From IMG/VR virus record IMGVR_UViG_2718218054_000003: a DNA stretch of 64,000 nucleotides; one strand, 5' to 3'. The DNA is from a virus. Under the pieces are notes generated by a model. That model was not told where the DNA came from, ran no database searches, and was given only the letters and a program-made list of their open reading frames with translations. A program made the translations under genes and the position numbers. Of the stretch, positions 45,646 to 49,475 are shown piece after piece. Position 1 is the first letter of the stretch; each line of letters begins with the position of its first letter.

Positions 45646-46722
45646 TCAGGAGTTGTCCTCGTGGATGGCGAACGCGTGCTCGATGCCGACGGCGAAGCCG
45701 CGGCGTGCGCGGAGCTTCAGGATCGACTCGTCGGTAAGCGCGGCGAGGCCGTTTCGGCCGTCGATGTAGATCGACTCCGGGCCGGAGCGGATGCCCAGCA
45801 GCATGAACTGGGGGATGGCGAACACCGCGAGCGGGTTGCCGGTCGGCCGCGCGGTCGGCGTGGCGCTCGTGCGCGCACCGAGCGACCAGCGCACCGGGTA
45901 GCCCATGATGCGGTCCGGAACCGACGCGGCACCGGCGGAGTCACCGCTGGACGACTCGGCGAAGATCGGCCGGTCGTTCGCGTCGACGATGTCGCGCAGG
46001 ATCTGCTTGTACGCCGGGTGCACGATCCACACGCCGGCGCCGTCGACCCAGTAGTCGGAGGTCTCGACCTTGCCGAGCGTGGCCGACAGGCTGGCGTAGC
46101 TGGTGCCGCCCGAACCGGTCTTCGTGATGTTGCTGTTCGCGGTGTAGTTGGTGTCCGCGTTGGTCTGCGTCAGCGTGTAGTACAGGCTGTCGAACTTGCA
46201 GCCCGTGCTCGACTTGGACGCGGTGACCGCCAAGCAGGCGTTGTCGAGGCCCTTCGCGTACGCGGTGGCCCAGTCGCTCAGCTTGGTCTCGACGACGTCG
46301 GCGAGGGAGTCGTCGATGTCCTCCTCGGCGATCCGGACCGCGCGACCGAACTTCTGCGCGCTCAGGATCACCTCGTCGTTGACGTTGGTGTCCTCGCCGT
46401 AGGCACCGCCCTTGGCGACGATGTCCATGTCGATGCCGCCCGACCGCGGGGTGGACCGGGTCTGCGACTTCATGGGGACGCGGTGTGCGACCGCCTCCAC
46501 CGCGGAGTTCTGGCGGATCTTCTGGATGACGTCGGCGCCGAACTCCTCCCAGAGCCACGGCTCGTACGTGTTCCGCGCGCCGCCGCCGAGGGCGCGAATC
46601 GGGGAACCGTCCGGGGCGAAGCCGAGGATGTCGCCGACGTCGTGAGCCGGGACGCGGGAGTCGAAGAGCTCGCGGTCGCGGTCGGTGAACAGGTCGCTGT
46701 TGCGCAGCAGAGTGCCGCCCAT
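45646..46722 (-). CDS. Major capsid protein (HK97 fold) with N-terminal leader
   Basis: GAAGGG RBS; V.LSAQKF..AVRI.EE..DD; DRIMGYPV; ILKLRARRGFAV. Confidence 0.9.
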   Translation of the reverse strand: MGGTLLRNSDLFTDRDRELFDSRVPAHDVGDILGFAPDGSPIRALGGGARNTYEPWLWEEFGADVIQKIRQNSAVEAVAHRVPMKSQTRSTPRSGGIDMDIVAKGGAYGEDTNVNDEVILSAQKFGRAVRIAEEDIDDSLADVVETKLSDWATAYAKGLDNACLAVTASKSSTGCKFDSLYYTLTQTNADTNYTANSNITKTGSGGTSYASLSATLGKVETSDYWVDGAGVWIVHPAYKQILRDIVDANDRPIFAESSSGDSAGAASVPDRIMGYPVRWSLGARTSATPTARPTGNPLAVFAIPQFMLLGIRSGPESIYIDGRNGLAALTDESILKLRARRGFAVGIEHAFAIHEDNS

Positions 46723-46764
46723 GGTCGTGCCCTTCAGGCGATGGGGAGGTGGCTGGCACCTGCG

Positions 46765-46836
46765 CCCCATCACGGGCACGCGGGTCGGAGGTCTTGCTGG
46801 GTCCGATCACCGGATGCGGTGGACGCCCATCACGGG
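46765..46836 (-). repeat. Two CCCGTGATGGG mini-hairpins in capsid 5' leader
   Basis: Direct repeat at about 46766 and 46826. Confidence 0.65.
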
Positions 46837-46909
46837 CCGTACACCTGGCCGAAGAATACACGCTTAGTCAGGCAAAGCTACGACGAAACGGCGGAAGATA
46901 GATCGCGCT

Positions 46910-46931
46910 ACCGAAGATTCGTCGGTACGAT
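46910..46931. promoter_or_regulatory. Operator-like site ACCGAAGATTCGTCGGT adjoining -10 TACGAT of the RNA operon
   Basis: Motif recurs at 46849, 57571, 59765, 59802, 63467, 63499. Confidence 0.6.
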
Positions 46932-46939
46932 GCGCCCAT

Positions 46940-47087
46940 GTCCTGCTAGTAGTTCAGCGGCCTAAGACGCCGCGATCGTGGAGATCGAGTCTCCTGCGGG
47001 GACCCGTTGATCCAGCACCCCGCGAACCCCGGCAAGGGGAGTGACACCGATCGCGGAAGCGCCGGTTCAAATCCGGTCGGCGGGACA
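46940..47087 (+). ncRNA. tRNA-bodied RNA with a 77-nt structured insert replacing the anticodon loop
   Basis: Acceptor stem, D arm GTTCAGCGGCCTAAGAC, anticodon stem CCGCG/CGCGG, T arm GCCGG-TTCAAAT-CCGGT; insert 46975-47051 folds into three hairpins. Confidence 0.8.
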
Positions 47088-47088
47088 T

Positions 47089-47172
47089 GGAAGGCGGCGC
47101 CGAGGTCGGCAAACCGGTCTTGAAAACCGGGCCGGGCCTAACAGCCTGGGGGTTCGATACCTCCGCCTTCTG
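47089..47172 (+). tRNA. tRNA-Ser(UGA), short D-loop
   Basis: GGAAGGC/GCCTTCT; CCGGT-CT-TGA-AA-ACCGG; long variable arm; G73. Confidence 0.8.
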
Positions 47173-47185
47173 CTGATGCTCGACT

Positions 47186-47269
47186 GGAAGACGGCGGCGC
47201 TGGTGCGCCAGATCGGTTGCTAACCGGTCGCCGGGCGAGAGCCCGAGGGTTCGATCCCTTCGTCTTCCG
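47186..47269 (+). tRNA. tRNA-Ser(GCU)
   Basis: GGAAGAC/GTCTTCC; ATCGG-TT-GCT-AA-CCGGT; variable arm with GAGA loop; G73. Confidence 0.85.
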
Positions 47270-47277
47270 CGCAGCAA

Positions 47278-47349
47278 GGCCGGTGAGCCATACGGTTGAG
47301 GCACCGCCCTTTCAAGGCGGGGAACCGGGTTCGATTCCCGGATCGGCTA
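47278..47349 (+). tRNA. tRNA-Glu(UUC)
   Basis: GGCCGGT/ATCGGCT; CCGCC-CT-TTC-AA-GGCGG; CCGGG-TTCGATT-CCCGG. Confidence 0.88.
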
Positions 47350-47351
47350 CA

Positions 47352-47441
47352 GCTCGGCGAAGTCGAAAGAGGCGTGGCGCCCCACGTCGAGTCGAGAGGC
47401 AGCAGGGTCCCGTCAGAGATGCGGGACAGCCCGTGGCAGCC
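47352..47441 (+). ncRNA. Unassigned structured RNA between tRNA-Glu and tRNA-fMet
   Basis: GCTCGGCG/CGTCGAGT stem; GTCCCG/CGGGAC stem; GNRA loops; no T-loop. Confidence 0.5.
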
Positions 47442-47445
47442 GCGG

Positions 47446-47518
47446 TGCGCCGTGGAGCAGTCGGTAGCTCGCTGGGCTCATAACCCAGAGGTCGCGGGTT
47501 CAAGTCCCGCCGGCGCTA
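47446..47518 (+). tRNA. Initiator tRNA-fMet(CAU)
   Basis: 1:72 mismatch, three G-C pairs in anticodon stem CTGGG-CT-CAT-AA-CCCAG. Confidence 0.92.
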
Positions 47519-47525
47519 CAACGAG

Positions 47526-47560
47526 AAGGGCCCGCCCGGATGTCACCGGGCGGGCCCTTT
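47526..47560. terminator. Bidirectional terminator between RNA operon and Ro60 gene
   Basis: AAGGGCCCGCCCGG/CCGGGCGGGCCCTT stem followed by T run. Confidence 0.8.
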
Positions 47561-47572
47561 GTCACATGCCGT

Positions 47573-49216
47573 TCAGAACGGCCAGGTGGCGTCTCGGCCG
47601 GACTCGAGCCACGGGATCATCTTGAAGGCCGCGTCGGTCAGGCCGCCGAAGGTGTGCCGGTTCCGCGCTCCGGAGCGGGTGTTGCCGTGCTGGTAGCCAC
47701 CCAGGTTCCACACGTACACCGGCGTGCTGCCCGGCACCGAGGCGGCAGCGTCAGCCGAGGCCGACTGCTCGTCGGTCACGATGATCACGCGGTCGTGGCC
47801 GGCGAAGTGCTCGCGCACCGCAGCTGCCGTGTCCGTGTAGCTGATCGGGTCGCCGAGGCCGTCGACGAACTTCAGCAACGACCCGCCGCGGGGCGGGTCG
47901 ACCTTGCGGCTCGTGCCACCGAACAGCACGGTCGTGGCGTTGGCCGCGCGCATCGCAACCGCGCAACCGAACACCGCCGCCTGGTCCGCGCACGTGATGT
48001 CCGACTTGGACGGCGTCGAGAAGTGGTAGCCGGGGAACATCGACGGCGACCGGTCGATCAGCACGAGCGTCCGCCCCGGCAGCGCGGGCACGTTCCGCAG
48101 GGACGCCTGCAGCGCCTTCTCCAGTGTGTGCCCCCACCGCAGCGACGGCGCGGCCCGGTACGCGGCCAGGAACCGGAACGGGAACTGCTGCGACCGCTCC
48201 ACCTGCGCGGGGTCCGCCAGCTTCGCCGCGACCTCTGCTGCGACCTCGTCCGAGACGCCGGCCTCGTCGAAGTTCCTGAGCTGACGGAGCAACGCCATGT
48301 AGCCCATGGTCGGGACGAGCGCCTCCCACACCTGCGCGGTCATCGGGCCCTGCAGCCACCCGGCGACCGACTCCCACGTCATGCCTGCCTGCCGCAGCAC
48401 CGAGGAGACGGCGTCGCGGTCACGGTCGAACAGGGCACGGCGCTTCTCGACCGGCCACTTCATCAGCTCGGCGCGCGCAGCCATCATCTCGAGCCGGGCG
48501 GGGATGGCGGCTTCGTTGTCGCGTCGCCGGTCGAGCATGTGCTGGAACAGGTCGCCCTGCCAGTCCGCCTTCGGTGACGGGTGCGCGAGGTTCAGCACGT
48601 CGGCCATGCGGAAGCCGCGGGCGGTGCTGTCCCACTTCAGCACCGCGCGCTCGTCCCACAGGCGCTGGATGGCGTCGGCGATGCCGCGCTTCACGGGCTT
48701 GGGCACCTTGCGTCCGTGCACCGCGGTCCAGTAGGCGAGGAGTTCGCCGGGCTCGTCGGCGCGCTGCAGCACGGACTCGATGACGTTGCGGTTGGCGGCC
48801 AGCACGTAGTTGAGGTGGTCGCCGTCGAACGTGCCGTCGAGCGCCTGCGTCTCGTGCTGGTCGGCCGGGCGCGTGCCGGCGGCGGCGAGGCGGGCGTGCA
48901 CGTACTCGGCCGCGCCGACGAGCGATGCCGTGCGCATGTTCGCCTCGGTGCGCAGCCAGAGCAGGAACCGGGCCGTCCACGCCGGATCCTCCAGCGCGAC
49001 GGTGCGCACGAGGTCGGCGTAGCGGACGTCGCGCTTCTCGGCGGACTCGTAGAAGGTGTCGGTGCCGACCATGTTGGACACGGCGTGCAGGAACAGCTCG
49101 GACTTGGTGTCGCGCGCGAAGGCCTCGCCGCCCTGGTGATTGCGGGCGATCGTGGGCGTGCTGACGACCGGGCTGGAGACAGCCGGTCGGACCCCTTGGG
49201 TGTTGAATCGTGCCAC
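47573..49216 (-). CDS. rsr: Ro60/TROVE-domain RNA-binding protein with vWA domain
   Basis: MARFN start, YLR..ANMRT-like WLRTEANMRTASL, QRADEPGE, KWD, MGYMALLRQLRNF, QFPFRFLAAY, MIDAS DRSPS, IVTDEQ. Confidence 0.93.
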   Translation of the reverse strand: MARFNTQGVRPAVSSPVVSTPTIARNHQGGEAFARDTKSELFLHAVSNMVGTDTFYESAEKRDVRYADLVRTVALEDPAWTARFLLWLRTEANMRTASLVGAAEYVHARLAAAGTRPADQHETQALDGTFDGDHLNYVLAANRNVIESVLQRADEPGELLAYWTAVHGRKVPKPVKRGIADAIQRLWDERAVLKWDSTARGFRMADVLNLAHPSPKADWQGDLFQHMLDRRRDNEAAIPARLEMMAARAELMKWPVEKRRALFDRDRDAVSSVLRQAGMTWESVAGWLQGPMTAQVWEALVPTMGYMALLRQLRNFDEAGVSDEVAAEVAAKLADPAQVERSQQFPFRFLAAYRAAPSLRWGHTLEKALQASLRNVPALPGRTLVLIDRSPSMFPGYHFSTPSKSDITCADQAAVFGCAVAMRAANATTVLFGGTSRKVDPPRGGSLLKFVDGLGDPISYTDTAAAVREHFAGHDRVIIVTDEQSASADAAASVPGSTPVYVWNLGGYQHGNTRSGARNRHTFGGLTDAAFKMIPWLESGRDATWPF

Positions 49217-49248
49217 AGGCTCAACCTCTCTGCGAGAGGGAGCTACAG

Positions 49249-49399
49249 CCTCACACGGGCCCGAGGTCAAGTCGGTGAAGGTGACAATGCGTCCTGGGCC
49301 GCTAGACCACGTCGACATGAAGCCGACGGCAGGATTCGAACCTGCGCCTCACCTTTTGCAGAGGAAGTAACCCTCGCCTGCGCACCGGGCCGTGTGAAG
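49249..49399 (-). ncRNA. yrlA: YrlA-type Y RNA with circularly permuted tRNA-like domain
   Basis: Order T arm (GCAGG-TTCGAAT-CCTGC), acceptor closed by loop (CGTCGGC-TTCAT-GTCGACG), D arm (GTCTAGCGGCCCAGGAC); terminal stem with TTGACC; directly upstream of Ro60. Confidence 0.85.
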
Positions 49400-49406
49400 T
49401 TGTTGG

Positions 49407-49475
49407 CTCCCGAGATCAGGGCGCCGACGGTGGGTTTCTTTACGAGAGAAGTAACCGTCGGCTTCGCACCGGGAG
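49407..49475 (-). ncRNA. Second, short Y-like RNA lacking the tRNA-like domain
   Basis: 5' 26 nt match the YrlA-like RNA at 23/26; terminal stem CTCCCG/CGGGAG; inner stem GCCGACGG/CCGTCGGC. Confidence 0.7.

Follow-up and report, generated by a model that had tools for sequence, protein, structure and literature searches.

A tRNA-like RNA with a three-hairpin domain in place of the anticodon loop at the head of a prophage tRNA operon

The DNA analysed here, a stretch of 64,000 nucleotides that we refer to as the window, corresponds to G000:C1:650352-714351 (minus strand) of a complete actinobacterial chromosome of ~10 Mb, and the region is a prophage. Between the capsid gene and a convergently oriented rsr gene encoding a Ro60 protein lies an operon with four real tRNA genes. 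The first unit of this operon is an RNA at 46940-47087 that is on the same strand as these tRNAs and abuts tRNA-Ser(uga). The features of the locus are as follows.

45646-46779 (-): open reading frame for a phage capsid protein (Pfam)
46926-46931 (+): TACGAT, a possible -10 box read from the sequence, 8 nt upstream of the first base of the RNA
46940-47087 (+): the RNA described here
47089-47173 (+): tRNA-Ser(uga) (ARAGORN)
47186-47270 (+): tRNA-Ser(gcu) (ARAGORN)
47278-47350 (+): tRNA-Glu(uuc) (ARAGORN)
47446-47519 (+): tRNA-Met(cau) (ARAGORN)
47526-47559 (no strand): perfect 14-bp inverted repeat separating the operon from the convergent rsr
47573-49222 (-): rsr (Ro60/TROVE-vWA), convergent on the operon, 46% identical to a Streptomyces phage "Ro-like RNA binding protein"
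49260-49391 (-): YrlA-type Y RNA with a permuted tRNA-like domain (T arm, closed acceptor hairpin, D arm)
49409-49473 (-): short Y RNA lacking a tRNA-like domain, upstream of rsr

Scans for a sigma-70 consensus and for intrinsic terminators found nothing. The TACGAT hexamer is a possible -10 box, and in that function it would put the transcript start at the first base of the RNA; the inverted repeat is likely a two-way terminator. The tRNA-Glu and tRNA-Met genes are separated by a 95-nt structured spacer (47352-47441, +), while the other spacers of the operon measure 1-13 nt. This spacer matches no Rfam family, and the region 47278-47435 is identical in a soil-metagenome contig of run X2 and present as a variant in run X1.

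The original prediction had described the RNA as a tRNA body whose acceptor stem contains a bulged A, with a D arm of the Glu/Gln type, a variable loop of 4 nt, a T arm and a 77-nt insert of three hairpins, and each of these elements was recovered at the following positions.

46940-46949 (+): acceptor stem, 5' strand, pairing with 47078-47086 over 9 bp, with A46948 bulged
46950-46951 (+): equivalents of U8 and A9
46952-46968 (+): Glu-type D arm, of the same type as in the aligned phage tRNA-Glu
46970-46978 (+): helix P0, 5' strand; anticodon stem CCGCG/CGCGG plus a 4-bp extension AUCG/CGAU, 9 bp altogether
46980-46994 (+): hairpin 1, GGAGA/UCUCC, in which the loop region AUCGAGU is invariant
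46995-47024 (+): hairpin 2, with a 7-bp basal stem and a variable apical part that has indels in one variant
47027-47039 (+): hairpin 3, CCCC-GGCAA-GGGG
47040-47047 (+): single-stranded joiner of 8 nt, AGUGACAC here and AGUGGCCC in all three variants
47048-47056 (+): helix P0, 3' strand, from the fold, a scripted pair check and the mapping of variants
47057-47060 (+): variable loop AAGC (4 nt)
47061-47077 (+): canonical T arm, GCCGG-UUCAAAU-CCGGU
47078-47087 (+): acceptor stem, 3' strand, and discriminator A47087; CCA is not encoded, and the next tRNA begins 2 nt on

The first four pairs of the acceptor stem (G-C, U-A, C-G and C-G) match those of tRNA-Glu. In the D arm, a stem of 3 bp (GUU/GAC) carries a loop of 11 nt with the equivalents of A14, R15, G18-G19 and A21, and the GG of this loop contacts the T loop. 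More generally, the core of a decoding tRNA (U8, A14, R15, G18-G19, A21, C48 and the T-loop UUCRANY) is present in full and where expected. The domain that replaces the 7-nt anticodon loop comprises 77 nt between the strands of the anticodon stem, and its first four and last four nucleotides are also paired, so that helix P0 opens into a junction of three hairpins, i.e. a four-way junction. By script, all 47 of the 47 proposed pairs are canonical. With the exception of the D stem, all elements are recovered by the unconstrained minimum-energy fold, which has an energy of -65.6 kcal/mol and a z-score of -2.1 (7 of 200 shuffles are equally good). The acceptor/T stack consists of 9 bp (plus the bulged A) and 5 bp, giving 14 bp compared to the usual 12.

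A 9-bp helix that opens into a four-way junction takes the place of the anticodon loop, so the RNA cannot read codons. As had been proposed, it is tRNA-shaped and unable to decode: there is no 7-nt anticodon loop with a U33, and positions 46975 and 46976 covary with 47051 and 47050, respectively. The earlier statement that the RNA is not a tmRNA also holds, as ARAGORN reports no tmRNA, the RNA has a D stem and there is no match in Rfam. ARAGORN with default settings does not call the RNA at all, and the Rfam tRNA model RF00005 does not match it at E <= 10.

The body of the RNA is nearest to tRNA-Glu(CUC), and the host tRNA-Glu(ctc) is its best match among the 92 tRNA calls of the host. Over the T arm and the 3' acceptor strand, identity to actinobacterial tRNA-Glu(CUC) is 93%. 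The anticodon stem is identical to that of the host tRNA-Gln(CUG). A covariance model built from the RNA (R1) has tRNA-Glu(ctc) genes as its top matches in other genomes (46-48 bits), with the insert scored as a deletion. In alignments with these tRNA-Glu relatives, the acceptor stem of the RNA is longer by three bases on the 5' side and by two on the 3' side. Among the host tRNAs, ARAGORN also reports one with a 4-base anticodon (acag) in an 8-nt anticodon loop and an otherwise regular body (G000:C1:3654979-3655053, +).

An index of public sequencing runs was used to find soil metagenomes sharing exact words with the locus, and their contigs were aligned to the window. The RNA is present in contigs of three soil metagenomes from three separate studies (runs X1, X25 and X26), and the insert is full-length in all three. 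The X25 contig aligns to 46738-46862 joined to 46939-47080, the X1 contig to 46700-46847 joined to 46939-47166, reaching into tRNA-Ser, and the X26 contig to 46941-47084. In X1 and X25, the spans show that the 5' end of the capsid gene precedes the RNA in the same arrangement as in the window; a promoter stretch of ~80 nt is swapped for unrelated DNA, and homology restarts at 46939, one base before the RNA. No run in the index contains the locus as RNA. The contigs have a depth of 2-5x, and most of the differences were seen again in independent runs.

The four known copies are ~90-97% identical, and their differences are unevenly distributed, with 2 variable sites among the 71 of the tRNA body and 17 among the 77 of the insert; in X1, the neighbouring tRNA-Ser has 2 among 78. 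The connector and D arm (46950-46968) are unchanged across all metagenome variants, and the core nucleotides are invariant with A57 to G in the T loop as the sole exception. When changes in paired positions were mapped onto the structure, nine of ten retained pairing, and two pairs are fully compensatory. Pair 46982:46992 of hairpin 1 is A-U in the window and G-C in X1 and X26; pair 46976:47050 of P0 is U-A in the window, U.G in X1 and X25, and C-G in X26. Pairs 46975:47051 and 46941:47085 become G.U and U.G in variants. The only broken pair is in the indel-rich tip of hairpin 2 in X26, the most divergent copy, which has eight gap letters there. The remaining changes are in loops and in the joiner; the excess of changes at unpaired sites is not significant (Fisher p = 0.13), and minimum-energy folds of the variants show rival GC-rich pairings. 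Pairs were counted by script on variants that had been reconstructed from tables of differences, with indels left out. Because it comes from four close copies, low-depth contigs and such rebuilt variants, the evidence for covariation is thin. Homologs with a covarying insert, on which the original prediction had hinged, nevertheless exist in that three metagenomic variants retain the insert and carry compensatory changes. Judged by its sequences, the RNA is real and conserved, and its evolution preserves structure. Kissing-loop or alternative pairings through four GATC words were also considered and were dropped because the variants do not retain them.

We suggest a model, which we consider to have about an even chance of being correct, in which the RNA is a phage-borne, non-decoding mimic that derives from tRNA-Glu, is stable and acts in trans on a tRNA-binding factor. 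In this model, the RNA would be produced as the first unit of the prophage tRNA operon and excised by the tRNA-processing enzymes of the host, by way of its intact D/T elbow, its Glu-type acceptor end and its abutment on tRNA-Ser. If RNase P cuts at the 5' end of tRNA-Ser, the RNA would retain a 3' trailer of 1 nt, and the elbow and acceptor features would fold it into a stable L shape. Because of its 14-bp acceptor/T stack, the RNA probably does not serve EF-Tu or the ribosome. Its target would rather be a protein recognising the tRNA-Glu/Gln body, which it would either occupy or recruit; candidates are the phage Ro60 particle and host factors for tRNA modification or for tRNA-targeting defence. 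The faster-evolving insert could provide a second binding surface or a block on catalysis. A role as decoy for an anticodon nuclease is a weak candidate because there is no anticodon loop to recognise. In the phage-tRNA literature, phage tRNAs are described as offsetting host tRNA-targeting defences (PMC10264068), and against this background a decoy would be a sensible strategy.

The neighbourhood of the RNA raises an alternative, in which it is an accessory Y-like RNA that serves as partner or tether of the phage Rsr (Ro60) protein and represents an unpermuted new layout of the YrlA idea. The convergent rsr is the gene nearest to the RNA, with its stop codon 490 nt from the 3' end of the RNA, and two bona fide Y RNAs lie upstream of rsr. 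The 581-aa rsr open reading frame as listed extends to an ATG at 49318; this codon is located within the YrlA-type Y RNA, which places the actual start near 49222. The Y RNAs of bacteria and phages are tRNA mimics, a known kind beside Ro60 genes that includes YrlA and Yrn1 of D. radiodurans, the latter being opposite in orientation to YrlA (PMC4201824). Moreover, three Ro60-encoding Streptomyces phages, Kela, Satis and GiJojo, have RNAs with tRNA bodies and altered anticodon arms in the tRNA arrays next to their Ro-like genes. These unannotated RNAs are as follows.

L027:2039-2156 (Kela): class-II tRNA-like RNA with an extra 5-bp hairpin in the anticodon loop (a 20-nt "loop")
L196:7330-7447 (Satis): class-II tRNA-like RNA, the counterpart of that in Kela; the long variable arm covaries between the two phages
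L025:1222-1378 (GiJojo): RNA with a 7-bp acceptor stem, canonical D and T arms and ~95 nt replacing the anticodon arm

In Kela and Satis, the RNA sits between the tRNAs and the YrlA and Ro-like genes, where Kela also has an RNA ligase gene; in GiJojo, it lies between tRNA-Asp and tRNA-Glu, and the fold of its insert is no better than that of shuffles (z = 0.1). All three resemble the prophage RNA in that acceptor, D and T arms are retained, the anticodon arm is altered and the RNA is part of a tRNA array by a Ro-like gene. However, they share no sequence similarity with it and have other bodies (class II in Kela and Satis), other inserts and a normal 7-bp acceptor stem. As separate observations on these phage arrays, ARAGORN reports in Kela an 86-nt "tRNA-Pyl(cta)" (L027:1852-1937) that is amber-suppressor-like, has a Glu-type D arm and is absent from the annotation of the record, and the matching place in Satis holds a tRNA-His annotated in its record (L196:7175-7244). 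In phage BRock, a sub-threshold match to the manA RNA (49.7 bits; cut-off 55.2) lies between two tRNA-Lys genes (L026:6091-6254).

The features by which Y RNAs are recognised are not found in the RNA at 46940-47087. The 5' and 3' stem motifs of the two prophage Y RNAs recur in the tandem Y RNAs at related rsr loci, and exact matches to the 5' motif CCGGUGCG(A/C)AG and the 3' motif UGAYCUCGGG occur only at these two Y RNAs. In the RNA itself, there is no match to the 3' motif at up to two mismatches and a single 3-mismatch match to the 5' motif, located in the T arm. The YrlA model (RF02553) does not match it even at E <= 10, and the order of its elements is acceptor, D arm, insert, T arm, acceptor, which bears out the earlier claim that it is neither YrlA nor permuted. 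A canonical Y RNA was rejected on these grounds, i.e. the unpermuted order, the lacking YrlA match and the lacking Ro60-binding motifs of the two Y RNAs upstream of rsr.

The distribution of the RNA also argues against a Ro60 function. Related prophages were sought through the capsid protein, and the closest one found, in genome G415, has a capsid protein that is 90% identical and retains a JAB protease gene, a YrlA-type Y RNA and rsr at 74% DNA identity. Yet, between rsr and the capsid gene, where the window has the whole tRNA cassette, this prophage has the following.

L063:12748-13971 (-): 407-aa open reading frame with no Pfam match, within L063:12704-14662 (G415:C12)

Since this open reading frame takes the exact place of the tRNA cassette, the interval from the capsid gene to rsr is a site for exchangeable cargo and, judging by gene content, the cassette is dispensable for this closest related prophage. 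A counterpart of the RNA is likewise absent from 15 other rsr loci (in Umezawaea, Lentzea, Saccharothrix, Amycolatopsis, Streptomyces and viral contigs), from four phage Ro loci and from the host's second rsr locus. At the latter, a TROVE match near 3929531-3929719 is preceded by four tandem Y RNAs (G000:C1:3930577-3931111, -), which share stem motifs with the Y RNAs of the prophage. Its absence from G415, the 15 rsr loci and this second host locus shows that the RNA moves with the tRNA cassette rather than with rsr. What would suggest a role as Ro60 ligand is thus its position, and we regard this alternative as unlikely.

In a second alternative, the RNA is a decaying tRNA-Glu/Gln pseudogene with an insertion in the anticodon loop, carried as a passive passenger of the cassette. 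Being a passenger would fit a cassette that is dispensable and an insert that evolves several-fold faster than the body, and it would also fit the restriction of the RNA to one narrow lineage. Searches with BLAST and R1 found no copy in ~750 related genomes. They gave just ordinary tRNA-Glu or tRNA-Met in 50 genomes of the same genus and 61 relatives, in family genomes (150 with R1 and 400 with BLAST) and in 150 genomes of the same order. One R1 match at another locus (L031; 22.6 bits) was rejected since it spans two adjacent YrlA units. No copy was found in phage or plasmid collections or in three exact-word scans of viral contigs, and one metagenome scan gave no match. A second metagenome scan, with a word from hairpin 3 as query, gave matches dominated by 23S rRNA and no genuine homolog; it was swamped because the chosen word is also conserved in rRNA. 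By contrast, decay does not readily account for a body that is as conserved as the neighbouring working tRNA, for stem changes in the insert that preserve pairs, including the two double compensatory ones, or for the full-length insert in four of four copies. In addition, the acceptor stem has its own matched 2-bp extension, unlike what decay would produce. The insert is not a genomic repeat: it has no second copy in the 10-Mb genome, which rules out a repeat element or the insertion of a mobile element as its origin, and the repeats inside the tRNA operon amount to T-arm resemblance only. We consider the pseudogene alternative quite improbable.

A third alternative is a decoding tRNA whose intervening sequence is removed. 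When introns are allowed, ARAGORN calls the RNA as a 75-nt tRNA-Thr(cgt) with a 70-nt intron, in which positions 32 and 33 correspond to 46975 and 46976, and the host encodes an RtcB ligase. However, the supposed loop bases vary, with U33 changing to C, and they covary with 47051 and 47050 as parts of a helix. This finding, together with the lack of the tRNA-splicing endonuclease domain PF01974 in the complete genome, where archaeal controls were positive, argues that the RNA is not an intron-bearing tRNA. Moreover, 77 nt is much below the size of group I and group II introns, the intron and ribozyme families of Rfam give no match at E <= 10, and the 9-bp helix at the junction is continuous and without the 3-nt bulges of a bulge-helix-bulge motif, in line with the original prediction that none of these introns is present. 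Finally, the 14-bp acceptor/T stack would still be abnormal after splicing. We therefore regard this alternative as highly unlikely. Just as unlikely is a cis-acting operon leader, a processing or folding element that promotes maturation of the downstream tRNAs and has no function in trans. The RNA is indeed first in the operon, abuts tRNA-Ser and has a possible -10 box from which transcription would begin at its first base. However, a full tRNA core including conserved tertiary nucleotides, or a Glu-type acceptor end, would be superfluous in a leader, and variants swap the upstream promoter region yet preserve the 5' boundary of the RNA exactly.

Several known systems resemble the RNA. Among non-coding RNAs, mimicry of tRNA is established for YrlA, tmRNA and viral 3' ends. 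In engineered tRNA scaffolds, an RNA of interest is grafted into the anticodon stem of a tRNA with acceptor, D and T arms left intact; the RNA described here similarly continues its anticodon stem into a foreign structured domain but is natural rather than man-made, and it also has an acceptor stem that is longer by 2 bp. The tRNA cluster of phage T4 contains the stable RNAs C and D (species 1 and 2), non-tRNA small RNAs that are co-transcribed and processed with the phage tRNAs; phage and host are unrelated to those considered here. Lengthened acceptor stems occur in tRNA-Sec (8/5 and 9/4) and allo-tRNA (8/4 and 9/3), but these have an acceptor/T stack of 12-13 bp and a 7-nt anticodon loop and decode, as opposed to the 9+5 bp of our RNA (PMC7609411).

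The likeness to YrlA and other Y RNAs (RF02553; Chen et al. 2014, PMC4201824; preprint 10.1101/312249) lies in being non-coding, in the tRNA-like D/T elbow and in the location at less than 0.5 kb from rsr, and both YrlA and our RNA are probably handled by tRNA enzymes. However, YrlA is circularly permuted, with its ends forming the Ro60-binding stem and its acceptor stem closed by a loop, whereas our RNA has the normal tRNA order, an open acceptor end and an insert at the anticodon loop, and is without Ro60-binding motifs. Yrn1 of D. radiodurans shares with our RNA an unpermuted tRNA-like order, opposite to YrlA in orientation, and a stem-loop at the position of the anticodon arm; by contrast, its terminal stem binds Ro60, its D arm is incomplete, it has no multi-hairpin domain and its sequence is unrelated (PMC4201824). 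In the literature searched, there was no natural RNA with a complete tRNA chassis and a cargo in the anticodon stem. Thus, the original remark that no described family resembles the RNA stands for the sequence family but not for the kind, for which YrlA, Yrn1 (PMC4201824) and the RNAs of Kela, Satis and GiJojo are examples. In other words, the RNA is a new layout within a known kind, the tRNA-like non-coding RNAs of phage and Ro60 loci.

Hairpin 3 has a look-alike in the ribosome. The 20-nt word GAACCCCNGNAAGGGGAGUG (47024-47043), which covers this hairpin and its flanks, is unchanged in the four copies of the RNA and identical to a conserved word in domain I of bacterial 23S rRNA of the pentaloop type, which we take to lie around E. 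coli nucleotide 460-480. Of 80 metagenome loci that were retrieved, 79 have the word directly after GGGAAAGGYGAAAA and directly before AAAUAGAACCUGAAACC, and two of these loci were confirmed as LSU rRNA by Rfam. The two free positions of the word vary among copies of the RNA as they do among rRNAs. The host's own 23S rRNA carries a tetraloop version of the hairpin, and the similarity between the insert and the host rRNA operon is no better than that of shuffles. As a rough estimate that allows for the self-complementarity of the hairpin, the chance of such a match is near 1 in 100, which is suggestive and leaves mimicry or coincidence as its explanation.

A broader reading, which we put forward tentatively and consider rather doubtful, is that phages deploy natural "tRNA scaffolds" from their tRNA cassettes, in which a tRNA chassis is combined with an exchangeable, fast-evolving domain on the anticodon stem to trap or redirect host RNA-binding factors. 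In this reading, the RNA described here and those of Kela, Satis and GiJojo would belong to one general, undescribed class. The chassis would secure processing, stability and recognition, the domain of the RNA described here includes the look-alike of a universally conserved 23S rRNA hairpin, and the targets would be tRNA-targeting defences, factors for ribosome assembly or surveillance, or Ro60.

Genes of this type have consequences for annotation, as they are missed by default tRNA finders and mis-called as intron-bearing tRNAs if introns are allowed. The RNA is located in a cassette of replacement tRNAs and beside a phage Ro60/Y-RNA module. If expressed, it would be a compact and testable case of a phage reusing the tRNA body for a task other than decoding.
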